Shown: in pieces, positions 2,982-40,939 of the stretch
Layout of the letters: each line of letters opens with the position of its first letter
Position numbering within the stretch: the stretch's first letter is position 1
DNA from: an uncultured Planctomycetota bacterium
Lineage (GTDB): Bacteria > Planctomycetota > Brocadiia > CAIUPP01
DNA length: 64,000 nucleotides
Direction: 5' to 3'
Assembly: GCA_903901045.1 (NCBI GenBank)
Contig: CAIUPP010000060.1
Coordinates: 6,661-70,660 of the forward strand
Program-made: the position numbers and the translations under genes
The notes under the pieces: generated by a model
The model's database searches: none
What the model was told of the DNA's origin: nothing
Seen by the model: only the letters and a program-made list of their open reading frames with translations

Positions 2982-4061
2982 TCAGGAGGAAACCGTGGAC
3001 ATCCTCCGTACGCGTTCGAGCCAGGAACGCGCCTCCTCCGGCGCCGCGCCGGAGAGGACGAAAATGAAACGCGTCTCTTGTGGCGCATGGGACAAGAGGC
3101 GCTGGATATCCTCCTCTGTAATCCACGCGAGCACATGGATCGGCGCATCTTTTCCGGCGAAGTGATCCAGAATGGTCTGGTACCCGCGTTGTCCGGCGAC
3201 GCGGTTGAAAGCATAGAAACCGGGGATGCGCTTGAAGGACTCGAACTGGTGCTCTGCTTCCGCGCAGCAATGCATGCCCAAGCCGCAAAAAGTTTCCGCC
3301 AGATCAACTAACTCCGGCAGGCAGAACTCTTCGAATAAGGGCGTGCCGAAACTCCCACACTCGTCATTGGAGACCCACGGCCCCATCTCCGGCGGCGCCC
3401 AAACGGTGGGACAATGGCATGGACTGCATTGAGGAAACTCCTTGCGAAACTCCCGCAGGAAGGTCTTCAATAGATGGGTGCATTTGTGCACCAGTCGTTT
3501 GACGGCGGCCTTGCCTTCGGGGTCCATCATTGCGCAAAGAAAGTCTTCCTTGTTCCAGATCAAAGCGGCCGTGTCAAATCCGCTCTGCATGTCCGGGGGG
3601 GACAGGCACACGTTGGGTCCCAGGCGGTGTTGGACAGCGTGAGCCAGTTCGAATACTCGGTAGAGCGTAGGGGACTTCCAGATATCCGGCGCCGGAAGTT
3701 GGTCTGCTTCCTGTGCGGTGTGAACACGCGGCAGCGCGCAGGGGCTGCTGCCTTCCATGCATTTGGCCTCGCAGCCGAAAGCGCTGGCGAAGAGATGCGT
3801 TCCGGTCTCCAGCCGGGCACACGGGACGCTATGGTCGCCGAGGTGGGCGACGGAGCGAACCTGCCGTTCATAGTTCTCCACCACCCAGGGTACCCATGTG
3901 TCGACCGGCTTGGCCGACAGCGTGTAGTCGTAATCGGGGTGTTCTGATATCTGAACCAGCGGCGGCACACAGCAGAAAGCATGGCCCTGGAAGGGACCTT
4001 TGCTGTAGAGGTTGCGAAGGAACGCTTCATTACGATCTATCAGGGGAACGACATTTGACAT
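2982..4061 (-). CDS. uroporphyrinogen decarboxylase (URO-D)/MtaA-like family protein
   Basis: 359 aa. 'ETFCGLGMHCCAEAEHQFESFKRIPGF' resembles the URO-D/MtaA TIM-barrel family and contains a His-Cys-Cys cluster. Paralogous to the ORFs at 15440 and 26482. Confidence 0.6.
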   Translation of the reverse strand: MSNVVPLIDRNEAFLRNLYSKGPFQGHAFCCVPPLVQISEHPDYDYTLSAKPVDTWVPWVVENYERQVRSVAHLGDHSVPCARLETGTHLFASAFGCEAKCMEGSSPCALPRVHTAQEADQLPAPDIWKSPTLYRVFELAHAVQHRLGPNVCLSPPDMQSGFDTAALIWNKEDFLCAMMDPEGKAAVKRLVHKCTHLLKTFLREFRKEFPQCSPCHCPTVWAPPEMGPWVSNDECGSFGTPLFEEFCLPELVDLAETFCGLGMHCCAEAEHQFESFKRIPGFYAFNRVAGQRGYQTILDHFAGKDAPIHVLAWITEEDIQRLLSHAPQETRFIFVLSGAAPEEARSWLERVRRMSTVSS

Positions 4062-4109
4062 GTCCGAGTTGGCCTCCTCTTTGGTATTGGCGGGATTCTT
4101 CTTCGGGGA

Positions 4110-7106: not shown

Positions 7107-7173
7107 TTCTGACTAACACTCAAAGGTGAAGGCTTCTTGCCAACGAGAATGCAGAAAATTGTTAGAATTGCCC

Positions 7174-7202
7174 TTGACAAATGAGATGCTACCATTTATT
7201 AT
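7174..7202 (+). promoter_or_regulatory. sigma70-like promoter (TTGACA-17 nt-TATTAT) for the GntR-type regulator, followed by an AGTAA-N5-AGTAA direct repeat and an AGGAGG RBS
   Basis: Consensus -35 TTGACA at 7174-7179, a 17-nt spacer, then TATTAT at 7197-7202. AGGAGG lies at 7223-7228 and a GTG start at 7236. Confidence 0.45.
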
Positions 7203-7235
7203 CAGTAACGTCAAGTAATGTAAGGAGGCGTCCGA

Positions 7236-8369
7236 GTGCAACAATGCCTTTCGAAGCTTCGGATAAACCCCAGCGGAGCTTCAGCCACGCATACTCAGAT
7301 ACGAGAGTTCCTCGAAGACAATATCCGCGATGGATGTCTGAGTCCTGGCAATCGTCTCCCTTCCACCGCCGAACTCGCCGAAATGTGGCGCGTAAGCCCC
7401 GTGTCAGTCCAGAAGGCCATGACGGAGTTGAAGGCGCACGGGTTCATCGAGCGCCGAATGCCCTACGGTACGTTTGTCCGCAGTGTGGAGCGGGATACGA
7501 CGATTGCCATCCTCGCAGGCAATCGGCTCATAAATGAAACGGCGTATTACCAGCGGATGCTCGTGGCATGCCTGTTCGAGGAACTTGCCGGCCGTTCCTG
7601 GAAGTCCATCTTGTACGACGGCTTCGATGTGGGCAATAGTTCAGAGGAAGTTCAGACCCTTTCGCGAAATCGGTTCATCGCCGATGCGAAGAGGCACCTC
7701 TTTTCTGGCTTGGTGATGATCGGCATGGGGTCGCCCGACTTCGAAGACATGGCTCCGCAAACGGGCCTACCGACGGTGCGCATCAGCACCGTGCTGAAAT
7801 TCTCGGATGTGACTTATGATGGCTATCAGTTCGGTTGGGACGTTATGGAATGGGCCAGCCGTAACGGGTTCCGCCGGGTGGCCTGCATGGGCATGAATGA
7901 AGACCAGCGCGGGGTGGGGGTGCAGGCAGGAGCGGCGCGGTTCAACCTTTTGGTGTCACATACCGACATGGGTGGAGTAGTCCTGGACAAAGTCGTCTAC
8001 GATCAAACAATGGCGATGATTGATGACTGGGCCCGTCGTAATGAGTATCCCGAGGCGCTGGTAGTGCGCGATGACGTGGCCATGCGCAGCGTGGCGCTGG
8101 CGTTGGCGCACCGGCAAGTCCAGGTGCCTCAGCAGTTGAAAGTCCTGACGTTGGCCACCAAGGGAACGCAAATCCATTACGGCATTCCTGTTACGAGATA
8201 TCAATTCTCTCCACAAGAGGAAGCCAGCGTGGCCATGTCCATCCTGTGGAAGAGGATTTTGCACGAAGCCCCCCCGCAAGTGCCGGTTCTGTTGCGGGGA
8301 AAGATCATTGAGGATCAGTTCAGTGGAGGAGGACCCGGACAGACAACGTCGGTCGGCGCGCTCGTGTGA
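7236..8369 (+). CDS. GntR-family HTH transcriptional regulator with a periplasmic-binding-protein-like (LacI-type) sugar-binding domain
   Basis: N-terminal 'IREFLEDNIRDGCLSPGNRLPSTAELAEMWRVSPVSVQKAMTELKAHGFIERRMPYGTFV' is a GntR-type winged HTH. The C-terminal ~270 aa looks like a PBP type-I fold. Confidence 0.8.
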   Translation: MQQCLSKLRINPSGASATHTQIREFLEDNIRDGCLSPGNRLPSTAELAEMWRVSPVSVQKAMTELKAHGFIERRMPYGTFVRSVERDTTIAILAGNRLINETAYYQRMLVACLFEELAGRSWKSILYDGFDVGNSSEEVQTLSRNRFIADAKRHLFSGLVMIGMGSPDFEDMAPQTGLPTVRISTVLKFSDVTYDGYQFGWDVMEWASRNGFRRVACMGMNEDQRGVGVQAGAARFNLLVSHTDMGGVVLDKVVYDQTMAMIDDWARRNEYPEALVVRDDVAMRSVALALAHRQVQVPQQLKVLTLATKGTQIHYGIPVTRYQFSPQEEASVAMSILWKRILHEAPPQVPVLLRGKIIEDQFSGGGPGQTTSVGALV

Positions 8370-8412
8370 CAGCTCCTAACAGGTGGTTTTTTGTGGATGA
8401 AGGGAGTCTATT

Positions 8413-9735
8413 ATGAAGCACTCGCTATGGACACGGTTGTCTGGCGCATTTACGTTGATCGAACTCCTCGTGGTAATCGCCATTATCGCCATTTTGGCCG
8501 GGCTGCTTTTGCCGGCGCTGGCGGCGGCACGCGAAAAGGCGCGCCGTACGACCTGCATCAACAACCTGAGCCAATTCTCCAAGGCGCTGGAAAGCTATTG
8601 CAGCGACTATTCCAGCTATTTCCCTTCCTCGCACCAGTATGGCGGCCAATGGATGGACGACAGCACCGCGGGGGCGGAAAAGATGCTGGTCTGTGGAGCG
8701 TATTCGGCGCGCACCCCCAGCAGCGGGACACAGACGATCAACACCATTGACCCTGAGAATTACCAGACCGTGGGCTACCCGACGTATATCGCCAGGGCAC
8801 AGCCGATTCAATACCTCCGGTGCATCTTCGCAGGCAAGCTTCCGGGCACCAAAGGCTATGATTCCGTCGCCCGCCCGGCCGGCCAACTCAACCTGGGTCC
8901 CGTGGGCCTGGGCATGCTCCTGACGGCTGGATACCTCGGCGATGCAAAGACCTTCTACTGCGCTTCCCATAATGTTTCTTCCTCCTTGGATGAGCAGAAG
9001 ATTACGCTGATCGGAAACAGCCGCGCCGACTACCGCTGGACGTATGCGTGCAGCCAGGGACAATGGAAGACGGCCGGCGGATTTGACGCCGCCACAGCGA
9101 TGACGGGCAACTGGGGCGCCGCCGTGACACCGTGGGAGTACCAGCCCTGGGGCCACTATGCGTTCGGCGGACGCGCGGTTTTCAGCTCCTATGCGTACCG
9201 CAACATGCCGGTGCTGACGTTGTACAGCGGCACCCAGGACCTGTCGGGCATGCTGGGCGTCACGTTGCGGGGCGGAAAGATGCGCGTCGCGTATGCTAAG
9301 CCGTTCGTCGAGCAATCTCTGAATGCGCCCGCCTTTAAGACGCAGAAACTGCTTGCCGGGCGCGCTATTGTATCTGATATGTTCGGAAAGGCTACTTGGA
9401 ATGATTCCAGTTGCAGCCCTATCAACAATCCAGGCGAAGGACTTCTGCACCACCGAGATGGCTATAACGTGCTCTATGGCGATTGGAGCGCCAAATGGTA
9501 CGGCGATCCGCAGCAGAGACTCATTTACTGGCCCAACAATGCTACGGAGTGTTACAGGAACGATACGTATTCGAGTGTGACGACGGACTGGGGACATTGG
9601 GGCAGCCCATCGTACTATGATCAAATCTCAGTGTACGCGACTCAATATGCTAGTGCGCAACATGTCGAGGGCAGTACGGGCGTGTGGCATATGTTTGACG
9701 TGAACGCGGGCACGGATGCCGATTCGCAGCCGTAA
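8413..9735 (+). CDS. DUF1559 / H-X9-DG protein with a prepilin-type N-terminal cleavage/methylation domain
   Basis: '[42 protein letters not shown]' is the classic type IV pilin-like N-methylation motif. The C-terminal '[14 protein letters not shown]' matches the H-X9-DG signature. The family is typical of PVC bacteria. Confidence 0.85.
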
Positions 9736-9772
9736 GTCTCAGGCATCGCCGACAGCGTAGTGAGTTCCTGAT

Positions 9773-9812
9773 AACGCCCCGCCAGGTCGCGAGGCTTGGC
9801 GGGGCGTTTTGT
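9773..9812 (+). terminator. rho-independent terminator
   Basis: 'AACGCCCCGCC-aggtcgcgaggctt-GGCGGGGCGTT' stem-loop followed by TTTTGTT, 38 nt after the DUF1559 stop. Confidence 0.6.
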
Positions 9813-9919
9813 TCATCGCCGTGTCGCTAACCCACTGTTTGATCCGTGTTTCCCAATTCAAGTCCTTGTGGACTCATCTGGTCGTGCGCCACTATTGACT
9901 CCAATCAGGAGGCCGCCTG

Positions 9920-12900
9920 ATGAAGACGCGAATATTGACGGGCTTGAGGACTCTTGGTGCTGTGATCGCGCTGTTGGCGCTTGCCACAGTAGCGCAGGCC
10001 GCCAACGGAACGTGGAATGTTGACGCCAACGGAAACTGGGGCACGACAGGCAACTGGGCCAGCAGCGTCATTGCTAATGGGTCCGGGTACACGGCAAACT
10101 TCACGAACAATATCACCGCCGACCGAACGGTCAATCTCGACAGCAACCGGACGATAGGCAGCATGATATTCAGTGACAATGGGACGAACGGCAGCGCCTG
10201 GATCCTGAGTTCGTCGGGTAATTCCACGCTCACGATGAGCGGGGGGAGTCCGACCATCGCGGTACGGACGCCGGCCACGATCTCCCTGAAACTTGCGAAC
10301 TCATCTGGCAGCAATATCGTGCTGACTGACGGCGGTTATGGCCAGGAGTTGACTCTGTCCGGCAGCAACGCCTTTGCCGGCAGCGTGACTCTTCAATCGG
10401 GCGTGGTGAACATCACGGGCGATAACCACGGCTCAGCGGGGAGCTTCTATGCCGTTCCTAACGGCGCCGGCGTGCAGTCGACGTTGAAGCTGCAAAGGTC
10501 AGATGCATATTGCCTGCCGACCGGCGTGTTCAAGTTGGACGGACGCACTTCCGGCAGCCTTCTGCGGCTGTACGACAACGACAACGCGACCGTGAAGACG
10601 TATCCAAACAATCTGCAGTTGGGCGGCGATATCTACTGCTATTTCAGGAACCTCAAGTTCAACGGTACAGTGTCATTGCTGGGGAACACCACCCTGCGCG
10701 GATGTACGGACGCCGGGTCCTGCCTGACGCTGCCGGGCGTCATCAGCGGCAGTGGATACAAACTGGACGTTCAGTCGCCCGGCTCCTCCGGCACGGTGGA
10801 CCTGCATCTCTCCGGAAACAATACTTTTAGCGGCGGCACATCGCTCATGCGCTCCAGCCTGTATCTCGGGTCCAATACGGCGCTGGGCACGGGAACTCTC
10901 ACCATAAACCAGCATCCCGTCTATCCATTCAGCCCCTGCCTTTACTCGGAAAACGGCGCGCGTTCGCTCTCCAACGCCATGACCCTCAATTGCAGCGTGA
11001 AAGTGGACGGCTCGTCCAACCTGACCTTCACCGGTCAGGGTACGATGACCGACAATGTCACCGTGACCGTAGCCGGCGGCAGCTATCTGTGCCTGGCCGG
11101 CGGGATGAACGATCCGAACGGTAAGACGCTGACAAAGGAGGATGCCGGCGAACTGGGCGCCAAAGGAACATTCAATTGCGATATTTCCGTCAATCACGGG
11201 TCGCTCCAGAGCGCCGGGACGCTCAGCGTTGCCGGGAGCGACATTGGCACGTTGACGGTCAACGGAAATGTCAACTTCGCTGATGACAATGATGGTCAAG
11301 GGACCTTCTCGGTTGATCTCAACGGGACCAGTGCAGGGACCACCTACGACCAGATGGTCGTCAATGGCACCGTCACCCTTGGCAACGGGTCGTACTATCC
11401 CCACTTGAACGCTGTCCTGAAGACCACGTCGCTGGGCCTTAACGATACTCTCACCATTATTCAAAATGACGGCACCGATCCGATCGTGGGCCGTTTTGAT
11501 GCCGAAGAAGGCTCGTTGGTGCAACTCAACGTCCAGTGCGGCGGGGGAGTGCAATATGCGACGGCGAAGATCAGCTACGTCGGGGGCACAGGCAACGACG
11601 TAACGCTCACCCATTTCAGAACGTCCACCACCCAAAGCTATTTGCCGCGCCGGTGGGAGTACCAATTGGACCTGAAGAATTGGCTCGCCACGCTGGTGAC
11701 GTCGGACTTCAACGTGATGCTCTCCAATATGACCTACAACGACAACTACTTCGCCAATAACGATATGGTGCATGCCGAATGGCTGCTCTTTGACAGTTAC
11801 GGGGAACAGGTGCCTAACCACCGTCTGCTGCGCACACCCTCTTCGGCATTTGCTCTCAGCAGCATTGACCCCCTCGACGGCACAATCTATATGCCGAACT
11901 GGGATAACATCGAGCGGCCCGCCGCGACCGACCCTCGCGCCAATATATGGTGGGCCGGTTGGAACTACAGCGGCAATCCACACAAGGCCTCCGCCAACGC
12001 GACGGCGATCAAGAAACGCGCGCTGGTACAGGTGGCGGTGGACATGATGGAACAGGATGAAGATCACTTCAATAATGTTTACAACAGGCGTTCGGACTAC
12101 CTGGGTGATCAGTTGTGCGGTTGGGCGTACACCTACAAGAAAGGCAAGGACGTTCTTGATGCCGGCACAAAGGCAGCGTTTGAGGCCGGGCTGAAGAGAA
12201 TGTTCACGAAGATTGAAACCTGGGGAATCGAAGGCTTTTATGCCGACATGGACGCCCGCGCGTTGCTCGGGATGTGGTACACCGCCGAGGCGCTCAATGA
12301 CAATGATTTACGGACCCGGTACGCCAGTTTCCGTGACAATGAGTTCATTGCCGGTGAATGGAACTCCGCCGGTTACCTGACGCATGGTGAGGCATTTGAC
12401 GCGGGCTACCAGGGCATTAGTTTCTACTACCTCACATGGCTCGCGCTGGAGTCCAACGACACGACGATTAAGAACCTCGTCGCAGCCAGCAGCAAGTTGA
12501 AGGCCTATCTGACCTTGCCGGAAAACGACGGCGCCTGGTTCTTCGGTCCGAGTCATTTTAACACGGCGACGGACGCCTGCTCGGCGAACGATGAGTGGTA
12601 CACCTATCGTCGCGACGTCGGCACCGGGATGATTACCGACGAGGCGAAGTACCTGGTCTGGACGGGACGGGCGCGAGTGGCGGCGTACTTACATGGCGAT
12701 CTGCTCTCTGTCGCAGACATGAAGACGGAAATCAACACGAATACAGGGAAACTGAACAGTTACACCGGCGGTACAAATGACTACGCTTTCACACAGGCCT
12801 ACAACGGCACGCATACGCCTTGGCACTCTGTGTACTGGGGCACTTGTTGGATGCCCTTCGCGGGAGATGACTTCTACCCCACGGGCTACTACGATTCCCT

Positions 12901-15373: not shown

Positions 15374-15439
15374 CAGGAATATTTCAGGAATTGGATGCTC
15401 AACGTGGATCAAGTCATGGTTGACGGTGCGCAGTGAATT

Positions 15440-16597: not shown

Positions 16598-16612
16598 TGG
16601 GAGTAGTGAAAA

Positions 16613-18019: not shown

Positions 18020-18048
18020 CAACCATGACAAGGAAGCGAGACGAAATC

Positions 18049-20418
18049 ATGAAGGCAGTCCTCACCCTGTGCGGCGTAGTGCTTCTCTGCGGCGCTTGCT
18101 CCATCTCGAAACCTGCTCTTGCCGCGGTGGCACCCGTCAACAGCGATCTGAACCCCGTCTCTTTCCATGAGGCGCCTCAGCACCCTCCCGTGGCGCTCAT
18201 CGGTCCCGGTGGGACGGTCAAAATCGTCTTGTTGCCTGGCGCATCTCACACTTTGCTCGCGGCCGTCAATGATTTGGCCGATTGTGTCCAGAAAGCCACT
18301 GGAGCGCGAGCGGAAATCTCGGCCGGTCCGGTCAAAGGTCCGGCCATCTTTGTAGGCGATAGCGCGGAGGCGATGGGGGCAGGCTTGGTTGGTTCGAAGA
18401 TGCCCATCGAGGGGTTTGCAATCAAGACCGCTACGGACCGTGTATACATCGTGGGCAATGACAGCCTGATCGACCCGGCGGCCGACCTGCGGTCTGAAGG
18501 AACGGCTTGGGGAATTTACGAGTTCTGTGAGCGATTTCTGGACGTGCGTTGGTACTGGCCGGACGCACTTGGCGTCAGTATTTCGAAACGCGCCGATCTG
18601 ACCATCGCACCAGTATGGCTGAGTGACGCACCGGTCTTCCGGAAGCGCGAAATGTGGCCCTCGGGCGGCAGACGCGTGGCGCCTGCCGATGTGGAGTCTC
18701 TGCACCGCCGGCTGCGCTCGGTGGACACTTGGCCAATTCACCTGCGTGTCCATGCGCCACACGATTGGTCCACTCTGTATAAAGACACCCGGCCTGGAAT
18801 TTTCCAGAAGCGCTCGGACGGCAAGCGAGACTTCGACATGCTTTGCTACGGCAATCCGCAGACGCTGCAAACCTATCTGGAACAGATTGAACGGCAGTCC
18901 AAACCCGGAGTGCAGGTGGATGAGAACGAGCGCATTGTGGACGGGCATGCGGTCACGGTATCGCCGAACGACATGTCCGTTGCATGCACATGCGAATATT
19001 GCCGCGCTCTTTGGGACAAGGACGGAGGGCAATACGGTACGGCGTCGCGGGGTATGGCCACGTTCGTTGCGAAGCTGGCCGGCGAGGTCAAGAAGCGCTG
19101 GCCGGACATGACCATTATTTACCTGCCCTATAAGAACTACACAAAAGCCCCTGCGGGCATCACCTTTCCTGACAATGTTGAAGTGCAAATATGCGGCATG
19201 CCCGGTCTGGCACAGTATAAGGAACCCGCCATCAATGCCTCCGAGCAAGCGAACATTGACGCATGGAAGAACCTGAGCAGGAGGAAGATCCAGAACTGGC
19301 ACTATTCCTGCTGGCCGGAGGATCAAACGGACGCGGTATACCTGTTCCCGCACACGATACAGGCGCACTACCTCGCCAATCGAGACAAGACGACCGGCTC
19401 GTTCGTCAACGGCGTTGCGAATCACTGGCCCCGGCAGCATATCAGTTTGTATGTCTGGCTCAAGGTCTTGTGGAACCCCGATTTCAACGTGGACTTTGCG
19501 ATTGATGAATACTGCCGGCGGATGTATGGCCCGGCCGCGGGGACTATGCGCGAACTGGCCCGCATGCAGATTGACGGATGGGAAAACAGCCGCTGGCCCG
19601 GCGGCGTATTCTCGGCCAGGGGGGTCTATGAAAGCAGCTATCCGCGCGAGCAGGTTGTTCGGATGGAAGAGCTGCTCAAGAAGGCCCGAGTTGAAGCGGC
19701 GGGGGACTCGCTGGCGACTGAGCGGATAGAGTACTACGCGACTCCGTTTCCAGCCTTTTTCAAAGAGTCGAAAGACTACGCAGAAGGTACGGGTCGAAGA
19801 ACCCTTAGCGCGTACCAAGTGGCCGAAGACCCGGTGTTGGACGGACGTTTGGACAAGCCTTGCTGGCAGGGCATAGAGCCTTTGCTTTTCGTGAAGGCGC
19901 TGGACCAGCAGGATCCGCAACCCAAGTATCCGACGGAGTTGAAAGCCGTCTGGTCGCGGCAGGGGATCACATTCGGGTTCCGTATGTCGGAGCCGACGCC
20001 TGAGAAGCTCGCGCGCGACATCGGAGCGGACAGCCGCGACGCGTCACTGATCTGGTGGAACGACAATGTGGAACTGTTCCTCGACGTGGTCGGGGAACGC
20101 ACGGACTACTATCAGTTCATCGTTAACCCCAACGGCGCCATCTATGACAGCCACGGGAAGGAGATTAGCTGGACGGCGGAAGGGGCGAAGTCAGCCATCT
20201 ATCTTGGCAAGGACTTCTGGTCAATGGAAGTGTTCATCCCCTACAAGGCGTTTAACCGGGTGACACTCCCGGCGACGGGCATCCAGTGGTTCGGCAATTT
20301 TACGCGTCACCGCGTAACAGACCGAAGTGATCGCGAGATGCAACGGCTCAACACCACTTTCGCTGGACCGAGTAATAACCCCAACGCCTTCGGTCCCATC
20401 CGGTTTGTCGAGCGCTAA
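18049..20418 (+). CDS. DUF4838-like secreted lipoprotein with a C-terminal CBM9/DOMON-like carbohydrate-binding domain
   Basis: Signal/lipobox 'MKAVLTLCGVVLLCGAC'. The C-terminal 'DGRLDKPCWQGIEPLLF...WWNDNVELFLD' is CBM9-like. Second ATG chosen as start because it has an AGGAAG RBS. Confidence 0.7.
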   Translation: MKAVLTLCGVVLLCGACSISKPALAAVAPVNSDLNPVSFHEAPQHPPVALIGPGGTVKIVLLPGASHTLLAAVNDLADCVQKATGARAEISAGPVKGPAIFVGDSAEAMGAGLVGSKMPIEGFAIKTATDRVYIVGNDSLIDPAADLRSEGTAWGIYEFCERFLDVRWYWPDALGVSISKRADLTIAPVWLSDAPVFRKREMWPSGGRRVAPADVESLHRRLRSVDTWPIHLRVHAPHDWSTLYKDTRPGIFQKRSDGKRDFDMLCYGNPQTLQTYLEQIERQSKPGVQVDENERIVDGHAVTVSPNDMSVACTCEYCRALWDKDGGQYGTASRGMATFVAKLAGEVKKRWPDMTIIYLPYKNYTKAPAGITFPDNVEVQICGMPGLAQYKEPAINASEQANIDAWKNLSRRKIQNWHYSCWPEDQTDAVYLFPHTIQAHYLANRDKTTGSFVNGVANHWPRQHISLYVWLKVLWNPDFNVDFAIDEYCRRMYGPAAGTMRELARMQIDGWENSRWPGGVFSARGVYESSYPREQVVRMEELLKKARVEAAGDSLATERIEYYATPFPAFFKESKDYAEGTGRRTLSAYQVAEDPVLDGRLDKPCWQGIEPLLFVKALDQQDPQPKYPTELKAVWSRQGITFGFRMSEPTPEKLARDIGADSRDASLIWWNDNVELFLDVVGERTDYYQFIVNPNGAIYDSHGKEISWTAEGAKSAIYLGKDFWSMEVFIPYKAFNRVTLPATGIQWFGNFTRHRVTDRSDREMQRLNTTFAGPSNNPNAFGPIRFVER

Positions 20419-20429
20419 GGAATAACCAC

Positions 20430-21563
20430 ATGAGACGTATAAGAGTTGGGCACATCGGCTGGCTTTCCTGGGATGAAGGTCCGGAGTGCGAAACCGTTGC
20501 ATGGTGCGACGCAAACCAGCATAAGCTGAAACAGTCCGTGGCGGAACATCCCCAAGTGGCCACTTACACCGATTACCGCGACATGTTGCGTCACGCAGGC
20601 ATGGACGCCGTCGTCATCTCCACCCCCAACGAATTTCACGCCGAGCAGGCAATAGCTTTCCTCGACGCGGGGGTGGACGTCTTTCTTGAGAAGCCGATGG
20701 GCGTCAACAAGGCGGAGTGCGATGCTATCCTCCAGGCGGCTGCGCGAAGCGGACGGACGCTGGTCATAGACTTCGAGTTGCGTATCTCCCTTTTCTGCCG
20801 GCGCGTCCGGGCGTTGATCGAAAGCGGGGCCTACGGTGAACTGCGGCGCATTGAGTTCTTCCACCACCGCGGATGCTGGCTTGAGGAAGGGAATGGATGT
20901 TGGCGCGTCCGCCCGGAAAAGAGCGGCGGATTCTACTTCATGGAACCGATTCATGAGGTAGACCTCTTCCGTCTTTTGGGAGGTGAAGTCCGCGCTGTCC
21001 AAAGCACGTCCGGTTCCAACGTGCTGCCGCAGTATCAGTTCGAAGACAATGTCTGTTCGCATTTCTTCTTCGAAGGGGGCGCGCTCGGGACGATTGTCAC
21101 ATCGCATACCCACAGTGCATGGGCAGACAAAACGAGTAAATGGGGGGATTTGGGACATGACATGGCTCTGATAGTGACGCTCACCCAGGGATCCATCGGC
21201 GTGGACTTCATCCGACAGCGCATTCTGGTCAACCGGTTTGAGACGTATCCCGCCGGCACTGAGGGTGTGCGGGTGGTATTGGACCATGTCGAGGATCACG
21301 CCGCCGCTGGCTATATGGAATTCTGCCACGATATCGATGGCATGCGCCGCGAGTTCATTCGCCGCCTGGCGGAAGGTCTCCAGCCGGTGCAGGACGCGTT
21401 AGGCGCTTGGCGTACCCATCGGGTGTGTCTGGCCGCCGAACAGTCGCTCAAGGAGGACTTCCGCCGCGTCGCGGTGGATTATACTTTGCCTGAAGGATGT
21501 GAGAGTCTGTCAGCGCCTGCACCTGCGGCGCACACGCTTCTTTTTGGGAGGAAATCGCGATGA
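20430..21563 (+). CDS. Gfo/Idh/MocA family NAD(P)-dependent oxidoreductase
   Basis: 'IRVGHIGWLS...DAVVISTPNEFHAEQAIAFLDAGVDVFLEKPMG' Rossmann block typical of the Gfo/Idh/MocA family. Confidence 0.8.
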   Translation: MRRIRVGHIGWLSWDEGPECETVAWCDANQHKLKQSVAEHPQVATYTDYRDMLRHAGMDAVVISTPNEFHAEQAIAFLDAGVDVFLEKPMGVNKAECDAILQAAARSGRTLVIDFELRISLFCRRVRALIESGAYGELRRIEFFHHRGCWLEEGNGCWRVRPEKSGGFYFMEPIHEVDLFRLLGGEVRAVQSTSGSNVLPQYQFEDNVCSHFFFEGGALGTIVTSHTHSAWADKTSKWGDLGHDMALIVTLTQGSIGVDFIRQRILVNRFETYPAGTEGVRVVLDHVEDHAAAGYMEFCHDIDGMRREFIRRLAEGLQPVQDALGAWRTHRVCLAAEQSLKEDFRRVAVDYTLPEGCESLSAPAPAAHTLLFGRKSR

Positions 21564-22906
21564 GACGAGAATGGGCGGTCTGCATGGCGCTGGCGGGCGC
21601 ATTCCTTCTGAGTGCGGCCATTCCTGCGGCCAGGGCGCAGGGCGTTTCCGAAAAGGACCTCTGGCTGGCCTTCGATTTCGAGAATAGCATTGAACCCTCA
21701 GGCGGTAGCGCTAAGGGTCAGATGACAGTAACCTTCTCTCGTGAGACTCGCGGCGTCAGCCCGGAGGGCACGGAGTGCGCCGCGAACGGGCCACGTTTCG
21801 TGAAGGGATTCCAGGGGCGCGGCCTATATATGGGAGGGGAGTCTCGCAATCTCCTCAAGCCCGAGTTGGCCGACATGGAATTCCCAGCGGGTAAGGTTGA
21901 AGGCGTTGATGTGCTTGAGGGGGCAGCCATCGAACAGGTCAAGACCGACGACGCGTGGTTCGGCGAAACATGCTTGAAGGTGCAGTCCAGCAAGAAGCTC
22001 GGCAGCGGCGTCTCGTTCCCAATCACCGTTTCCGGCGGCGGTTTCTACGTGTTCTCGCTCCATGTGCGCGGACAGGGGCAACTGGCGCTGAGGGTCGTCA
22101 AACCTGAAGGCGCCGCCTGGACCGTCGGACCGGAGAAGTCCGTTTCCTGTTCCAGCAATTGGTCGCGCCATGCGGTGTGGGTCTATGCCACCGATACGGT
22201 CTCCACCAGTGTCACTCTGGCCACCAATGCTGGCGAACGCAGCGAGTTCTTTGTGGACGGAGTCCAGTTGGAGAAGCGAGAAAAGGTAATGGGTTTCGCT
22301 TTCCCAGAAAAGAATGAGTACCCCTATGGCAAGGAATTGTCCCCGGGACCGTGGACGCCGGGGCGTCAGAAGAGCGCGGGGGATTTCTTCTGCGTTCGTT
22401 GGGACCAGAAGTTCATGTTTCCTATCGCCGAGGGCAGCTACAGCCTCTGGTTTAAACCTTGTTTTGCCCGAGGAGACTGCGAGTACCACTCAATCATCGA
22501 GCGCTACTATCAGTGGAGCAATCTGGCCTGCTGGCCCTATTGCCAACTCAATTTCTTTCGCGGGAAGAACTCTGCCGAACACGACCAGCGCAGCGACATG
22601 GGCCAGGTGGAAGTTCGGCGGCCGGAAGCGTTTGCTCAGGACCAATGGTGTTTGCTGACGGTGACGTGGAGCAACGCCGAGCGGAAGTCCGCTCTCTATT
22701 TCAACGGCGAGTTGATCGGCCAAACTCTCAGCATGTGTGACAGCACGTATGCGAATGGCTTCATGGGCATCGGTAATGACGGCACGAGTCCATCCAACAC
22801 CAATGGAGTCCTTGACAACATCCGAATATACTCCCGCGCACTGGCGGCCGATGAGATCAAGAAGGAATACGAAGCCGGCATGACACGTTTGAAAGAGGGG
22901 AAATGA
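21560..22906 (+). CDS. secreted concanavalin-A-like lectin / LamG-domain protein
   Basis: Signal peptide 'MRREWAVCMALAGAFLLSAAIPAARAQG'. The C-terminal 'GVLDNIRIYSRALAADEIKKEY' is a LamG-type motif. ATGA start/stop overlap with the upstream gene. Confidence 0.7.
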   Translation: MRREWAVCMALAGAFLLSAAIPAARAQGVSEKDLWLAFDFENSIEPSGGSAKGQMTVTFSRETRGVSPEGTECAANGPRFVKGFQGRGLYMGGESRNLLKPELADMEFPAGKVEGVDVLEGAAIEQVKTDDAWFGETCLKVQSSKKLGSGVSFPITVSGGGFYVFSLHVRGQGQLALRVVKPEGAAWTVGPEKSVSCSSNWSRHAVWVYATDTVSTSVTLATNAGERSEFFVDGVQLEKREKVMGFAFPEKNEYPYGKELSPGPWTPGRQKSAGDFFCVRWDQKFMFPIAEGSYSLWFKPCFARGDCEYHSIIERYYQWSNLACWPYCQLNFFRGKNSAEHDQRSDMGQVEVRRPEAFAQDQWCLLTVTWSNAERKSALYFNGELIGQTLSMCDSTYANGFMGIGNDGTSPSNTNGVLDNIRIYSRALAADEIKKEYEAGMTRLKEGK

Positions 22907-22909
22907 GCA

Positions 22910-25900
22910 ATGAGGAATGCGCGGGTATTCCTGACTGTGTTGTGCCTTGTGTTCATGTCGGCAGGGGTTCCGGCCGCCGAACCGATGGGGGATCCCTCAG
23001 GTTATCTTCACGTCCTGGAAAAGGGCATTGTCACTCCGCATCGCATCATTGCCCAGCAATATGCCAAGGGCGGCCTCAAGGCGCTTTGTATTGTGCCCTT
23101 TAAGCTGGGGGCGCGTGAGGTGCTGGAAGTGGCCGAGCGGTTTCCATTCGAGTTTGAAGTCGTCACTGCCGCATCTCACGACAACATTGACTTCTCCACC
23201 GTTCACCATTTCAGTGAAACCGCCCAAGGGATGGGTGGAAGCCTGAAGGAAAAGAGGGAAGAACTTAAGCTTAAGCTCAAAGCTGACTACGACCTGATTG
23301 CTATTGGCAATTTTCAGTGGGAAACCTTGCCGGACGACGTTGTAAGCCTCATTCTCCAGAAGGTGGAGAATGGCACCGGGTTGGTCGTGACATATGATCC
23401 CGTGATTCCCGCTCCGGGTGACGGGCTGATCGTGTCCGACTTTGCCAATCAGCAGGACGACTATATTCTGAAAGAAACGCCCCTCGCGCATCTGGACGCG
23501 TTTCGCACCAGGAAGGCCGAGGAGATTGCGGGGCTCGTCCGGTGTTACAAGCTTGGCAAAGGAAGGATTCTATTCCTCCGCATCGGCAAGCCCTTCGCCT
23601 ACAATGGAGGCCACGCCTTTACTCCGATGGACGAACCTTCCTGTTTTGATCGGTGGGCCAACAACTACGAGTACTACATCTCCTTCTTTCTGAAAAGCGC
23701 GCTGTTTGCCGCGCGAAAAGAACCCGACGTGTTGTTCGACAAGCCGGAGATCAATGTATCCACTGGCGCGGCGCGCCTGCCGGTCTCGATCAAGGGCGAC
23801 GCGGCATTCCCGCTGGAGTGGACGCTGGTGGTTCGGGACGCTGAAGGCCGGCAAGAATCCACGGCCTCCGGGAAGTTGGCCTCTAAAGAGGACCGCGTTA
23901 TTGAGTACAAGTTGCCGCTGCTCACAATCGGCACCCATTTCCTTGACGTCACGCTCGTTCATGGGCGGCAGGTCGTGAATTGGGCGGGGTTTGGATTTGC
24001 CGTAGCGGGCGATTCACCCATCAGGGAGCTTGCGCTTGCCCGTGAACGGTTCGCTCCAGGGGAGGTCGTGACGGGCAAGCTTGTCTTCACTCAACGGCCC
24101 GAGACGTGCGTGGTTGAATTGGTGGACAACTGGGGCAGAATTGTTGCGCGCCAGTCGGATGCCGACCTTCGGAAGAACGGGGAATCTTTCGTCCTTGAGC
24201 CGGGGAACAACCCCTCTCTGCGATACCGTGTCCGCGCCCTGGCCGTGAACCCGAATCAAAAGGCGGAGAGCACCAAGTCCTTCTTCGTTAGCGACAACGG
24301 CCGCGGACGTTTTCAATCCTTGTACTGGGGGTCTTACCCGCCATGCTACCTTGGCGCCCTAGCAGCGCGGCGGCTCTATGATGCCGGCTGGCACGTTCGT
24401 TTCGGAGGGGCCGGCTGGATGTCGAACGCTTACACTGTCACAGAACCTGCGTGCCTGTTCGAGTTTGAACAGTTCGACGCGGACGCCAAAGTGGCGGAAA
24501 TGAAGGCGTCCGTTCGCCAGAAGATGAAGGAAACCGCCGGCGCACCTGCCTTCGCCTACTTCCTGGGAGATGAAACGATCATCGGTCGCACACTCGACTC
24601 CGGCATCAACTCGCCGGCACTGGCAAAGTTTCCGGCATACGTGGAGAGCCTCTACGGAAATATCGCCTCGCTCAACCAGCGGTGGGGAACGAAATATACA
24701 ACCTTTGCCGAGGTGAAGCCGAGTTGTCTGTCCGATGCCGTGGCGGCCGGCGCTCCGGGCCGATGGGTGGTCTTCCGCAAGTTCCTGTCCGAGGAGTTCT
24801 TCAAGGTGCACCTGGCTGCGCGAGATACGATTCGCGAATCCGATCCATCGGCACCGACCGGCATTGAGGGAACCTATCAGATTGAACCCGGGCAATGGTA
24901 CAACCCGCTCTCCCTCTATCGCGATTTGGGATTGTGGGGGCCATACCCGGATTGGCTTTGCAGTATGGTGCTTAAGTCCACGCGCGATCCCAGCAAACCA
25001 TACGGCTATTGGTTCGGCGGCTATCGCGACCGCTATAGCGGCGGAACGTACTACGGCCGGACCGCAGGGGAATACGTCTATTATCCCTGGAAACACATGA
25101 TGGATGGGGCCAATAGCCTGTGGTGGTTCTCCGAAGGTGGTATAGAGGGCATGCTGGACCTGAACCTGGATTTCACGCCTTACTACAAGGCATACAAGGA
25201 CGATGTGGAACTGGTTACCTATAGTCTCGGTCCGGCACTGATGGGGGCGCGGGCGCAACTCGACTCGGTCGCCGTGATCTACTCTCCGAGTTCAGTTATC
25301 GCCGCAGCCGCCGTGCTCCGGAACCAGGACGTTTACCAAACTCTCGGAGTGGATCTGGTCCATACGATGCAAGGGTGCGGCATTCAGCCGGCCATCGTGG
25401 ATGAGCAGGATGCTGCCACAGGCAAGGCCGACCTGCGCCAGTACAAAGTCATTGTCCTGCCTTACAACACGGCCATGTCCGACGCGCTCATCGGCAAACT
25501 GTCCGAAGCGGTTGAGAACGGCGGCACGCTGGTCGGAAGCATGGACGTCGGCTTCATGAACGAAAACGGAGACTATCGTACTCAGAGCCACCTCAACGAG
25601 ATTTTCGGCGTTACGCGTGACATCAATCCGGCTTGCCCTTCCAAGAAGACGCCTCTCAAGTGGCAAGGGGACCTCTGGGGTACGAACGTCCAATTGAACA
25701 TCCCGGAAGCAGTCGTCGGGGAGAGCATCAAGCTGACCACCGGCAAAGCGGTGATCGCCACCGGGCCGGTCTTCATCGCGAACCGCATCGGCAAGGGTGA
25801 GGCCATTCTCCTAAATTGCGTGCTGGGCGTGGGAGACCCGCGAAAACCCGACTCAACCGCTGCTGTCACGGTTTGGAAGGCTTTGTTCCGCCACGCCGGC

Positions 25901-26485
25901 GTTCAACCGCCGGTGAGCTTCGCCAAGGAGCCTGGAGACCGATCTTTGATTGAATTGTCCACATTCCAGAGCGGCGACGTGCTTATCGTAGGCCTTCAGA
26001 AGAACAAGCATTGGGACTTGGACAAGGAGTGCAGACTGAAGGTGGCCCTGGGACAGGCGTACACTGTGCGGAATCTGCTGACCGGCGAGAACCTTGGAGA
26101 GCGCGATCACTTGGATCCGACACTCCGTGGTCTTCGTGGTGCCTTTTTTGCGATGTTTCCGAAGCCGGAACTGGATCCCGAGATAAGCCTGGAACCCGTG
26201 AGCGTGAAACCGGGCCAGACGCTGCATGTGATGATTAGGAGTCAGCAGCAAAACGCCTTTCCTGACAGATACTCCGTACGCGTCTATCGCGTGGGCGACG
26301 CAGCCACGGCCGACTCCAACCATGGTGTGTGCAGTTTCTGGACATCTGCGGCGGTCAAGACTGGTCCCGAATGCAGCATGGCGGTGCCGGTGGCCTATAA
26401 CGACGCCCCTGGCCAGTACCGCCTCGTTCTTCGGCGGGACATGACCGGAGTGGAAAAAGAGTTCACGTTTGTGATCGCGCCGTGA
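22910..26485 (+). CDS. large secreted hypothetical protein (1191 aa) with a GH42-type trimerisation / class-I glutamine-amidotransferase-like domain; putative glycosidase
   Basis: Signal peptide 'MRNARVFLTVLCLVFMSAGVPAAEP'. 'QYKVIVLPYNTAMSDALIGKLSEAVENGGTLVG' resembles the beta-galactosidase trimerisation domain. Confidence 0.65.
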   Translation: MRNARVFLTVLCLVFMSAGVPAAEPMGDPSGYLHVLEKGIVTPHRIIAQQYAKGGLKALCIVPFKLGAREVLEVAERFPFEFEVVTAASHDNIDFSTVHHFSETAQGMGGSLKEKREELKLKLKADYDLIAIGNFQWETLPDDVVSLILQKVENGTGLVVTYDPVIPAPGDGLIVSDFANQQDDYILKETPLAHLDAFRTRKAEEIAGLVRCYKLGKGRILFLRIGKPFAYNGGHAFTPMDEPSCFDRWANNYEYYISFFLKSALFAARKEPDVLFDKPEINVSTGAARLPVSIKGDAAFPLEWTLVVRDAEGRQESTASGKLASKEDRVIEYKLPLLTIGTHFLDVTLVHGRQVVNWAGFGFAVAGDSPIRELALARERFAPGEVVTGKLVFTQRPETCVVELVDNWGRIVARQSDADLRKNGESFVLEPGNNPSLRYRVRALAVNPNQKAESTKSFFVSDNGRGRFQSLYWGSYPPCYLGALAARRLYDAGWHVRFGGAGWMSNAYTVTEPACLFEFEQFDADAKVAEMKASVRQKMKETAGAPAFAYFLGDETIIGRTLDSGINSPALAKFPAYVESLYGNIASLNQRWGTKYTTFAEVKPSCLSDAVAAGAPGRWVVFRKFLSEEFFKVHLAARDTIRESDPSAPTGIEGTYQIEPGQWYNPLSLYRDLGLWGPYPDWLCSMVLKSTRDPSKPYGYWFGGYRDRYSGGTYYGRTAGEYVYYPWKHMMDGANSLWWFSEGGIEGMLDLNLDFTPYYKAYKDDVELVTYSLGPALMGARAQLDSVAVIYSPSSVIAAAAVLRNQDVYQTLGVDLVHTMQGCGIQPAIVDEQDAATGKADLRQYKVIVLPYNTAMSDALIGKLSEAVENGGTLVGSMDVGFMNENGDYRTQSHLNEIFGVTRDINPACPSKKTPLKWQGDLWGTNVQLNIPEAVVGESIKLTTGKAVIATGPVFIANRIGKGEAILLNCVLGVGDPRKPDSTAAVTVWKALFRHAGVQPPVSFAKEPGDRSLIELSTFQSGDVLIVGLQKNKHWDLDKECRLKVALGQAYTVRNLLTGENLGERDHLDPTLRGLRGAFFAMFPKPELDPEISLEPVSVKPGQTLHVMIRSQQQNAFPDRYSVRVYRVGDAATADSNHGVCSFWTSAAVKTGPECSMAVPVAYNDAPGQYRLVLRRDMTGVEKEFTFVIAP

Positions 26486-27648
26486 GAGATGGTTCTGTGG
26501 GGAGCCCGTCCGTGCCCTTGACGCCAAAACAGCGCATGCTCAATGCCTACCGCGGCCTTCCTGTGGACGTTCGCCCGGTGGCCCCGGAGTTCTGGTACTA
26601 TTATCCAGCCAAAGTGCTTAGGGTGGATATGATTCAACTCCAACGCGAAGTTCCGTTCTGGTTCGCGTTGAAAACCACCTTCGAGAAATTCGGTTGTGAG
26701 GGATGGGGTACGGTGTGGTGCGGTCGTGAACAACCCAAACCGGCTTCGGAAACACACGAGTTCATTCAGGTCGCAGCGGATTCCTATGAACTGCGCTCGT
26801 GTGAGAGTTTCGCGGGCAGGACTTTCCGTTCCACGAGCCGCTATAGCAAGGCGGAGCCATCTTGGCAGGTCGAGTACCCCGTGAAGGACCCTTTTACGGA
26901 ACTCGACTGCTATTTCGACATGCGGGTTCAGCATGGTTGCACTCTGACTCAGGCAAAGGCCCTTGAGGCTCGCAACGCCGTTGGCGAGGCATTCCTTCTT
27001 GAATGCGTCCTGCCCGGTCAGTTCACGGACTTCCTGGCCTCAGCCATGGGGTTCGAAATGGCAGTCCAATACCTCATGACCGAGGAATCGGCTAAGTTGG
27101 AGAGTTACCAGAAACGCTACCGTGATTACGTATCGGAGACGACCGGTCTCTTGGCGGCCACGTTGCCGTTTGAGTCGTATTTCATGGGCTGCTCCTACTC
27201 CTGCGCGTCGCTTATGGGGCCACGATTGTGGCGGCAATGGGACGTGCCTATTGTGGCCGCCGCTGCGAGCGCGATCCACCGACACGGGAAATTAATGCAC
27301 CTGCACTATCACGGCAAGTCGTTGGAGAATGCTGCTGATCTCGCCAGCACAGGGGTGGATTGCGTTTGCCCATTCGAGCGTCCGCCCGGTGGCGATGTGG
27401 ACGGGCTGGAAGGCTTGCAGAGAACCCGGGCTCTGATTGGGGAAAAGCTCACATTCAACGGGAATGTGCATACGGTGGCGACGCTCATTCGTGGCACGCG
27501 CAATGATGTTCGGCGTGAAGTCGGTCAGATAAAGTCCGCCTTTGCCGATTCCCACCGGCTCATCATCGGTACGGGTGACCAAGTCGGACGCGAGACGCCT
27601 GAGGAGAATCTTCACGTGATGGTTGAGGCGGGCCATGAAGCTTCGTGA
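26482..27648 (+). CDS. URO-D/MtaA-like family protein
   Basis: 'LTPKQRMLNAYRGLPVDVRPVAP' N-terminus plus 'LMHLHYHGKSLENAADLASTGVDCVCPFERPP'. GTGA overlap with the upstream gene. Confidence 0.7.
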   Translation: MRDGSVGSPSVPLTPKQRMLNAYRGLPVDVRPVAPEFWYYYPAKVLRVDMIQLQREVPFWFALKTTFEKFGCEGWGTVWCGREQPKPASETHEFIQVAADSYELRSCESFAGRTFRSTSRYSKAEPSWQVEYPVKDPFTELDCYFDMRVQHGCTLTQAKALEARNAVGEAFLLECVLPGQFTDFLASAMGFEMAVQYLMTEESAKLESYQKRYRDYVSETTGLLAATLPFESYFMGCSYSCASLMGPRLWRQWDVPIVAAAASAIHRHGKLMHLHYHGKSLENAADLASTGVDCVCPFERPPGGDVDGLEGLQRTRALIGEKLTFNGNVHTVATLIRGTRNDVRREVGQIKSAFADSHRLIIGTGDQVGRETPEENLHVMVEAGHEAS

Positions 27649-28587: not shown

Positions 28588-28744
28588 GTATGCAGCACGG
28601 TCGTTCGGCGTGGCGGCAACGTTCGTGAACATATGATCGGTGAAGCAGCGAAGGTACGCTAATAGGAGCGCGTGGGAAACATCGTTCCCATCGGGCCGGG
28701 CTTTCCGCACTTTGTCGGTGAAGTTTACCGAGGCAACACGCCCC

Positions 28745-32412: not shown

Positions 32413-32428
32413 CCTGGAGAACTCGCGG

Positions 32429-36192: not shown

Positions 36193-36278
36193 GCACTGAA
36201 GGCGTGAGTTAGGACGCGAACCATGTCGCCCGCCCGTTGCGCGCGCGGCGGGCCGCATTTGGCATGAAAGGAAGTTGC

Positions 36279-37622: not shown

Positions 37623-37647
37623 TCCAGCCGCGTTATCGAGGGCGTTC

Positions 37648-40938: not shown

Positions 40939-40939
40939 G

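Follow-up and report, generated by a model that had tools for sequence, protein, structure and literature searches.

The four URO-D-like genes of the window

The window analysed here is a stretch of 64,000 nucleotides (nt) from contig CAIUPP010000060.1 of an uncultured Planctomycetota bacterium, with a G + C content of 61%. It carries four open reading frames (ORFs) that belong, or in one case probably belong, to the UROD/MtaA/MetE barrel superfamily, which includes uroporphyrinogen-III decarboxylase (UroD or UROD). An earlier sequence-only reading had listed them as three URO-D/MtaA-like copies and a divergent fourth. All four ORFs were confirmed at the coordinates below and are referred to as FamA to FamD.

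2982..4061, minus strand: FamC, 359-amino-acid protein of UROD/MtaA fold (AlphaFold 2 model, Foldseek, score against Pfam URO-D)
15440..16597, plus strand: FamA, 385-amino-acid protein of UROD/MtaA fold (Pfam URO-D, AlphaFold 2 model, Foldseek)
26512..27648, plus strand: FamB, 378-amino-acid protein of UROD fold (Pfam URO-D, alignment, profile against the PDB)
43980..45230, plus strand: FamD, 416-amino-acid protein (profile aligned to FamC; no Pfam match)

The FamB ORF opens at the GTG at 26482, where it overlaps the stop (26485) of a gene resembling glycoside hydrolase family 42 (GH42). The start of FamB is most likely the GTG at 26512, since GGGGAG is found 7 nt upstream and both the homologues and the public gene call start there. 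Direct reading of the four N-termini revealed no signal peptide, and comparison of the four family profiles with every ORF of the window revealed no further copies.

FamA and FamB score 61.6 and 54.5 bits, respectively, against the Pfam family URO-D (PF01208), above its gathering cutoff of 23.9 bits; FamC falls slightly under this cutoff (22.7 bits), and FamD gave zero matches in Pfam and NCBIfam scans. The AlphaFold 2 (AF2) models of FamA and FamC have predicted local distance difference test (pLDDT) values of 92 and 95. With the FamC model, Foldseek retrieved UROD at a template modelling (TM) score of about 0.6 and MtaA at 0.66–0.69; the top matches of FamA are identical, and it is specifically the UROD and MtaA structures that resemble the barrel fold. 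The structure-based identity to UroD is about 15–19%, and FamA is equidistant from UroD and MtaA. Single-sequence searches of the PDB yielded marginal UroD matches for FamA and none for FamB, so that profiles were required. The superfamily membership of FamC rests on its predicted structure, because hhalign gave no significant alignment of FamC with FamA, human UROD or an MtaA fragment. Membership of FamA, FamB and FamC in the superfamily is solid.

FamD is a probable, very divergent member, judging from profile comparisons. The FamD family profile aligns with that of FamC over 294 columns (hhalign probability 75%, E = 2.6e-5), and weak URO-D matches occur in three of 36 FamD homologues. The single FamD sequence aligned insignificantly with the FamB and FamC alignments, only the family profile reaching 75%, and the FamD profile matched nothing in the PDB. 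The reported set of copies therefore stands for FamA and FamB by Pfam and for FamC by fold, with FamD a probable but unproven addition. The URO-D N-terminal pattern T.K.R...DR.PV attributed to the copies is present in FamA and FamB but not clear in FamC. Two motifs that had been singled out, MHCHGSC in FamA (nt 16229–16249) and MHCC in FamC (HCC at nt 3264–3272, minus strand), were both located.

Four ancient families spread across phyla

Each ORF falls into an orthologous group of its own, with hundreds of relatives at 50–68% identity. These relatives are distributed among Planctomycetota, Lentisphaerota (including Victivallis vadensis), Kiritimatiellia, Verrucomicrobiota, Armatimonadota, Omnitrophota, KSB1, Chloroflexota, Bacillota, Sumerlaeota, WS1, Spirochaetota and others, a spread reaching far beyond the Planctomycetes–Verrucomicrobia–Chlamydiae (PVC) group. 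Nearly all come from metagenome-assembled genomes; the named organism with FamA is V. vadensis. Lentisphaerota predominate in the FamC family, and the FamD family is large, with 2286 representative clusters (E <= 0.001; over 2000 when clustered at 50% identity). The best names attached to the relatives are 'UroD family protein', and some public records read 'uroporphyrinogen-III decarboxylase', a name that is misleading for these proteins and is corrected here. No characterised relative of these clades, and no paper on them, was found in the literature searched.

The four families can hardly be aligned with one another. FamA and FamB share about 20% identity. Their profiles align over the full length, including a common N-terminal beta-meander insert (hhalign probability 99.4%). 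The description of the genes as an expansion of paralogues is misleading, as the copies have closer relatives in other phyla than in the window. The sequence relationships indicate that four ancient subfamilies are co-resident in the window, and not that a recent local expansion took place.

Conserved residues and the candidate active site

Each family has 50–67 columns that are invariant across phyla, mostly His, Cys, Asp, Glu, Asn and Arg located where strands end. In FamA, the invariant positions include R263-x-H265-C266-H267 (HCH at nt 16232–16240), E286-P-L-E289 (nt 16295–16306), H170, H196, E228, D248 and N314; the extra beta-meander insert occupies residues ~60–124. Those of FamB include H263-x-H265-x-H267 (nt 27298–27312), an H-x-H-x-H motif, together with C-P-F-E289 (nt 27367–27378) and G-T-G-D356-Q (nt 27568–27582). 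In FamC, M-H264-C265-C266-A, S-N-D-E-C235-G, D157/Q159/D163 and N286-R287 are invariant, and C97, C194 and H216-C217 nearly so. The conserved FamD motif Y-G-C308-C309-E310 (nt 44895–44909) lines up with M-H-C-C-A of FamC.

Such conservation bears on whether these are enzymes at all. A non-catalytic role, for example in sugar binding, sensing or scaffolding by proteins that evolved from an enzyme fold, would be consistent with the variable neighbours of these genes (see below), with the lack of a known activity and with the frequent pairing of FamC with only a divergent AraC regulator (L011, L173). We regard such a role as very improbable: the invariant residues are disposed as in an active site, and FamB lies in operons between catabolic enzymes, often with translational coupling.

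UroD (HemE, EC 4.1.1.37) is metal-free and uses Arg37, Arg41, Asp86, Tyr164 and His339 (human numbering). The human UROD query sequence, 100% identical to PDB 1R3Q, was aligned with the FamA profile by hhalign, and only the C-terminal half was aligned (residues 148–353). Tyr164 falls on a gap, His339 is not kept, and the Ser219/His220 segment corresponds to an invariant A-H-E-M-L-I-P-P-W insert in FamA; the N-terminal RQAGR region (Arg37/Arg41) and Asp86 are unaligned. Since the catalytic and substrate-binding residues are either unaligned or not kept, the alignment indicates that the UroD catalytic residues have been lost and that the window proteins are not UroD. The claim that they are not haem-pathway enzymes is borne out, and the NCBIfam scan found no match to the hemE model among the four ORFs. 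Two copies do exceed the Pfam URO-D cutoff and some homologues carry the decarboxylase name, as ordinary HemE paralogues serving tetrapyrrole biosynthesis would. That explanation is effectively refuted by the loss of the catalytic residues, the missing hemE match and the low structure-based identity, and by the absence of haem or tetrapyrrole genes from the window and from all annotated neighbourhoods examined.

The published zinc site of MtaA (PDB 4AY7) is H240/C242/C319, and the numbering recovered from our alignment agrees. When the FamB profile is compared with the PDB, H240 corresponds to H265, C242 to H267, E263 to E289 (one residue off) and C319 to D356. The same mapping in FamA gives H265, H267 and E289. 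These ligand-type residues are invariant in the 32-sequence alignments of FamA and FamB, which cover many phyla. FamC alone keeps His-x-Cys: its H264-x-C266 is invariant and lies where the equivalent strand ends. Judged by strand register, Glu and Cys would be missing from the two remaining MtaA positions in FamC. The candidate ligand sets are thus His-x-His + Glu in FamA, His-x-His + Glu + Asp in FamB, His-x-Cys with further invariant Cys in FamC, and Gly-Cys-Cys followed by Glu at the same place in FamD.

The earlier assignment of the MtaA zinc pattern is correct in that ligand-type residues are conserved at the MtaA/MetE metal positions, but the His/Cys/Cys site itself has been replaced in FamA and FamB. 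The reading of MHCHGSC as His-x-Cys was mis-registered: what corresponds to H-x-C is H265-x-H267, with C266 between the two histidines and no conservation of C270. For the MHCC copy, His-x-Cys holds. The arrangement typical of MtaA, His-x-Cys with a distant Cys and an exchangeable Glu, was not found in the window proteins, nor were the double barrel, the His-Cys-Glu-Cys zinc site or the close structural match of MetE. Against TIGR01463 (MtaA/CmuA, cutoff 235 bits), FamA scores 54.4 and FamB 35.5 bits in the NCBIfam scan, and FamC and FamD have no match; scores against this and other MtaA models are 4- to 30-fold under the cutoffs.

Genomic neighbourhoods of the relatives

Neighbourhoods of FamA were surveyed in 78 loci from species-representative genomes. 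The ORFs were clustered in 74 of these loci, the recurrent clusters were annotated and their homologues counted. No universal partner exists among the 74 loci. The commonest neighbour is a DUF4838 protein (12 loci), also present in the window, followed by Amidohydro_2 (11, frequently adjacent), beta-helix proteins of ~660 amino acids (10, often arrayed), sulfatases (9), and heparinase II/III-like proteins and GFO/IDH/MocA oxidoreductases (8 each). An aminotransferase of the DegT type occurs in seven loci, often directly upstream, DUF3604 in six and short-chain dehydrogenases/reductases (SDR) in four. FamD is itself a neighbour in five loci and lies directly upstream of FamA in L037, L041 and L064.

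The FamB survey covered 80 metagenome loci, 55 of which are at least 5 kb long and 49 of which have enough upstream DNA. A recurrent module was found with the order Zn-dependent alcohol dehydrogenase (Zn-ADH), GFO/IDH/MocA, optionally a PfkB kinase, optionally GH38, FamB and a further URO-D paralogue. GFO/IDH/MocA is directly upstream of FamB in 13 of the 49 loci, its stop often overlapping the FamB start, and is encoded on the same strand no more than 6 kb away in 17; Zn-ADH is present in ten. Clustering of the 55 loci gave GH38 in nine, SDR in eight and PfkB in four. The pairing of FamB with NAD(P)-dependent dehydrogenases is thus conserved and partly translationally coupled. The best NCBIfam matches of the partners, all sub-cutoff, are IolM (scyllo-inosose 3-dehydrogenase), IolG (inositol 2-dehydrogenase) and IolC (5-dehydro-2-deoxygluconokinase).

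Two to four URO-D-like genes occur in 31 of the 55 FamB loci. Altogether, 54 additional URO-D-like ORFs (~310–390 amino acids, from other, shorter subfamilies) accompany FamA or FamB genes in L013–L170; at the position of the MtaA H-x-C motif, 37 of them have H-x-D and ten H-x-C.

FamC was found in same-strand operons in L171 (1036–15071) and L172 (4188–12122), with Pel9A-like and GH141-like beta-helix proteins, GH3, GH95, DUF5060/apiosidase-like proteins, GH36, several sulfatases and a transporter of the major facilitator superfamily. This gene set is reminiscent of the degradation of rhamnogalacturonan-II (RG-II) or of sulfated glycans; RG-II contains 2-O-methyl sugars. A third FamC context (L012) has the order PfkB-GDSL-GH42. 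Other annotated contexts show genes of the same kinds: GH38, GH95, GH3, GH32/43, GH172, GDSL esterases, Zn-ADH, GFO/IDH/MocA and regulators of the AraC and GntR types. The link of the URO-D-like genes to sugar catabolism, suggested earlier from the window, is therefore real and recurs across phyla in the locus surveys.

One of the reactions proposed earlier, decarboxylation, can be weighed on these gene sets. The proteins would then have retained the reaction class of UroD and be non-oxidative decarboxylases of uronates or beta-keto sugar acids, acting for example after oxidation by a dehydrogenase, with the metal stabilising an enolate. The UroD fold would suit this chemistry, as would the richness of FamA loci in enzymes that act on glycans with uronates or sulfate groups (heparinase II/III-like, beta-helix lyase-like, sulfatases, SDR, Amidohydro_2), and the dehydrogenases adjacent to FamB could produce beta-keto acids. 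We nevertheless consider it quite unlikely, in view of the loss of the substrate-binding and protonating residues of UroD, of neighbourhoods without a specific sign of CO2 loss, and of a FamB module that, with its IolG-, IolM- and IolC-like partners, resembles a route for polyols or cyclitols and not one for uronates.

Search for corrinoid partners

In the known systems of methyltransferase I (MT I), the corrinoid protein, the methyl-THF methyltransferase (MT II) and the activator are encoded in synteny with MT I (PMC13222342). No such synteny with FamA or FamB was seen in the locus surveys; the genes around them code for dehydrogenases, kinases, glycosidases, esterases and sulfatases. A direct search was made by phmmer with the B12-binding domain of Escherichia coli MetH, a query validated solely by its match in L095. 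The domain was absent from all 74 FamA loci and from the window and was found in one of the 55 FamB loci; PF02310 was likewise absent from 11 Pfam-annotated contexts, and an Rfam scan revealed no cobalamin riboswitch in the window. The proposed check for a corrinoid partner thus found one nearly never nearby.

The lone match (L095 9392–10042) is a 216-amino-acid protein with the DxHxxG motif G-D-L-H-D-I-G-K-N, and it serves as a positive control of the query. Within L095 8253–10042, its gene lies directly downstream of an H-x-D-type URO-D paralogue, and not of FamB; this paralogue in turn follows FamB in an ADH-GFO-PfkB-GH38-FamB cluster. It is the sole corrinoid partner in about 140 loci. Some of the many accompanying paralogues may be genuine B12-dependent methyltransferases in sugar loci.

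These results bear on a further explanation, namely that the window proteins are corrinoid-dependent MT I enzymes of the OdmB/VdmB/MtvB/MtoB type, which O-demethylate methyl-ether sugars and whose partners are encoded elsewhere. Candidate substrates would be 2-O-methyl-fucose, 2-O-methyl-xylose, 4-O-methyl-glucuronate and 6-O-methyl-galactose. The superfamily is common to all known MT I enzymes (PMC10418091, PMC13222342). Its S-methyltransferases have His-Cys-Cys ligands; in its O-methyltransferases, carboxylates (Asp or Glu) or non-ligands take the place of Cys, which favours oxygen over sulfur binding (PMC10418091); the His/His/Asp/Glu set of FamB and the H-x-D paralogues (37 of 54) are similar, and the corrinoid protein of L095 adjoins such a paralogue just downstream of a FamB gene. 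The case for a corrinoid-dependent sugar O-demethylase is strongest for FamC, which keeps H-x-C among GH141-like, GH95 and apiosidase-type genes in L171 and L172. The last three are families that act on RG-II. Against this stand the near-complete absence of B12-binding domains from the surveyed loci, the absence of a riboswitch, the low scores against MtaA models and the tight link between FamB and its NAD(P) dehydrogenase and kinase partners, which is alien to methyltransferase systems. We consider this explanation unlikely for the window proteins.

Comparison with known systems

The fold of these proteins is familiar; what is new is their ligand sets, the missing corrinoid partners and the glycan-catabolic context. 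UroD and MtaA are the nearest known proteins, both at the same distance; the MT I O-demethylases and dehalogenases come next, then MetE. Three chemistries are recognised in the UroD superfamily: metal-free decarboxylation, Zn-thiolate methyl transfer (MtaA, MetE) and corrinoid-dependent MT I activity.

In comparison with UroD/HemE (PDB 1URO, 1J93, 4EXQ), the window proteins have conserved clusters of His, Cys, Glu and Asp where MtaA binds its metal, the beta-meander insert is an addition in FamA and FamB, and the context is glycan catabolism instead of tetrapyrrole synthesis. The branch of MtaA (4AY7), MtbA, MtsA and CmuA has His/Cys/Cys ligands, whereas FamA and FamB have His/His/Glu(/Asp); the window proteins score far below the cutoffs of its models, have no corrinoid partner in the loci surveyed, are not carried by methanogens and show no evident thiol acceptor pathway.

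The likeness to MT I enzymes (OdmB, VdmB, MtvB, MtoB, CdmB; PDB 9RUI) consists in the common superfamily, in variable or carboxylate ligand sets favouring O-donor substrates (PMC10418091) and in multi-paralogue families in one genome. The insertions that CdmB has between the first strands of its barrel (PMC13222342) are a further point of likeness. The sequence relation to CdmB is marginal (E = 0.57 in a profile search). MT I systems have three or four syntenic components (MT I, corrinoid protein, MT II and activator; PMC13222342), and the window families are found instead with the dehydrogenases, kinases, glycosidases, esterases and sulfatases described above. MetE (PDB 1T7L, 3RPD) is much more distant, with a double barrel, thiolate ligands and a folate/homocysteine context. 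The metal-dependent, xylose-isomerase-like TIM barrels of keto-sugar and cyclitol pathways (IolE/IolO, LgdB, DgpB/C and the AL1 3-keto-glucoside lyase) belong to another superfamily (AP_endonuc_2); they have no specific structural or sequence relation to the window proteins and would be analogous to them by gene context.

Proposed function

Taken together, the conserved residues and neighbourhoods suggest, with about even confidence on our part, that these are metallo-TIM-barrel enzymes of the cytoplasm which need no corrinoid and act on sugar intermediates that are oxidised or acidic. Four old clades of the UROD/MtaA/MetE barrel would have taken on cytoplasmic roles in the catabolism of complex glycans. 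In FamA and FamB, N/O ligands would hold a mononuclear divalent metal, either Zn, Fe, Mn or Co, which as a Lewis acid would bind oxygens (hydroxyl, carbonyl or carboxylate) of a sugar-derived substrate; no corrinoid protein would take part. The idea from which this work started is thereby retained as far as it denied UroD activity and proposed probable metal binding and a reaction on sugars, and is given up for FamA and FamB as regards the His-x-Cys methylcobamide branch.

FamB would work beside an IolG-like GFO/IDH/MocA protein, an IolM-like Zn-ADH and a PfkB kinase. Given these NAD(P)-dependent dehydrogenases and the kinase as neighbours, the most likely substrate is a sugar or cyclitol in oxidised form (keto or diketo). 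The reaction could be an isomerisation, a hydrolytic C–C opening or a beta-elimination of the dehydrogenase product. This role would be analogous to that of metal-dependent TIM barrels in the inositol, levoglucosan and 3-keto-glycoside pathways, an analogy drawn from general knowledge of these pathways and from the sub-cutoff Iol-like matches. FamA would serve loci of acidic or sulfated glycans (Amidohydro_2, DUF4838, beta-helix, heparinase-like, sulfatase and SDR genes), and its gene context suggests that it probably acts on a product of the uronate or keto-acid type.

Several observations weigh against the metalloenzyme proposal. The best FamA partner is present in only 16% of the loci, the dehydrogenase pairing of FamB in ~27–35%, which is partial conservation, and in the window itself FamB has no usual dehydrogenase partner alongside and the adjacency of FamA to a GH4 gene is unique. 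At the metal site, E289 of both FamA and FamB is one residue off E263 of MtaA, FamA has no conserved residue at the distal Cys position and hence no fourth ligand, and the thiol-rich motifs of FamC and FamD suit an N/O Lewis-acid site less well. The corrinoid search covers loci only, so that a distal, shared corrinoid protein elsewhere in the genome is possible. Finally, conserved ligands are not the sole determinant of chemistry, because CdmB, an MT I of the UroD superfamily, works without zinc (PMC13222342).

More speculatively, and with clearly less confidence than in the proposal for the enzymes themselves, FamA–FamD and the H-x-D paralogues might represent a large, overlooked radiation of the UroD superfamily, a new class of cytoplasmic, corrinoid-free carbohydrate metalloenzymes in which N/O (or other) metal sites have taken the place of the thiolate zinc site. 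Within such a radiation, oxidised sugars could be stripped, without a cofactor, of decorations such as methyl ethers or other beta-leaving groups or, alternatively, diketo-sugars or cyclitols could be ring-opened. If real, either activity would fill gaps in the glycan catabolism of Planctomycetota, Lentisphaerota, Verrucomicrobiota, Armatimonadota and many candidate phyla.

Each family is strongly conserved, with its own invariant ligand set, in glycan degraders of more than 12 phyla, most of them uncultured. Should these proteins be sugar-metabolising enzymes, they would mark unassigned steps in the breakdown of sulfated, acidic and possibly methylated polysaccharides and would add a fourth chemistry to a well-studied fold. 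Experimental handles are provided by the module of FamB with its IolG-like, IolM-like and PfkB partners, by the ligand residues, and by V. vadensis as a carrier of FamA.

Gene content of the window

The carbohydrate-related context reported around the copies was found again: GH4, DUF4838, GH42-like, GFO/IDH/MocA, LamG, two xylose-isomerase-like barrels, esterases and GHL6. FamA and FamB belong to a plus-strand run from 7236 to 29719, and FamD lies further downstream. Their neighbours are as follows.

7236..8369, plus strand: regulator of the GntR helix-turn-helix/periplasmic-binding-protein type, head of the run (Pfam GntR, Peripla_BP_3)
8413..9735, plus strand: DUF1559/N-terminal methylation-motif (prepilin-like) protein (Pfam SBP_bac_10, N_methyl)
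9920..15373, plus strand: 1817-amino-acid orphan directly upstream of FamA (no Pfam match)
16613..18019, plus strand: GH4 NAD+/metal-dependent glycosidase, alpha-galactosidase subfamily (Pfam Glyco_hydro_4, 4C)
18025..20418, plus strand: DUF4838 protein (Pfam DUF4838)
20430..21563, plus strand: GFO/IDH/MocA NAD(P) oxidoreductase (Pfam)
21560..22906, plus strand: Laminin_G_3/concanavalin-like lectin-glucanase domain protein (Pfam)
22910..26485, plus strand: 1191-amino-acid GH42-like protein, beta-galactosidase catalytic fragment and trimerisation domain (Pfam Glyco_hydro_42, 42M); its end meets the beginning of the FamB ORF
27712..28587, plus strand: xylose-isomerase-like TIM barrel, AP_endonuc_2, downstream of FamB (Pfam)
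28640..29719, plus strand: alpha/beta-hydrolase of the esterase type (Pfam Peptidase_S9, Abhydrolase_2)
45325..47334, plus strand: GHL6/fucosidase-like glycosidase directly downstream of FamD (Pfam GHL6, Alpha_L_fucos)

Homologues of the DUF1559-type protein occur near FamA in five loci and those of GHL6 in three; DUF1559/N_methyl prepilin-like proteins are typical of PVC bacteria. The 1817-amino-acid orphan has no homologue in the 74 FamA loci. The GH4 assignment is supported by NCBIfam NF011657 (514 bits, cutoff 486). The gene starts 15 nt past the FamA stop and was considered as a functional partner of FamA; this was ruled out, GH4 being found in none of the 74 other FamA loci. Similarly, the GFO/IDH/MocA protein of the window is not the conserved FamB partner, as a BLASTP alignment with a representative of that partner covers the Rossmann part only.

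The AP_endonuc_2 barrel downstream of FamB is weakly IolE-like (NCBIfam TIGR04379, 29 bits, far under the cutoff), and a second AP_endonuc_2 TIM barrel is encoded at 32258–33268 (plus strand). Two such barrels with a GFO/IDH/MocA protein are a combination typical of pathways of the 3-keto-sugar, levoglucosan or C-glycoside type. Neither the Rfam nor the tRNA scan gave a match in the window.

A resistance-nodulation-division (RND) efflux operon (36237–42310, plus strand) codes for a CusB/HlyD-type adaptor with an N-terminal heavy-metal-binding domain, an AcrB/CusA-like pump and an OEP outer-membrane factor. It is directly upstream of a DUF5666-like protein (42402–43778) and the FamD gene, and a 2-hydroxyacid dehydrogenase gene is found after FamD in addition to the GHL6/fucosidase-like gene.

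A 998-amino-acid protein (4110–7106, minus strand) is encoded directly upstream of FamC. It was compared with the beta-helix/GH141-like FamC neighbours of L171 and L172 and is not one of them, as there is no similarity. Five large ORFs have no Pfam match, at 4110–7106 (minus), 9920–15373 (plus), 1743–2954 (minus), 48336–49970 (plus) and 52727–54130 (minus); they may code for unclassified glycan-active proteins. A Golvesin_C-domain protein (54332–55348, minus strand) and a 1165-amino-acid DUF5060-containing protein (55588–59085, minus strand) extend the glycan-related content to about 59 kb of the window.

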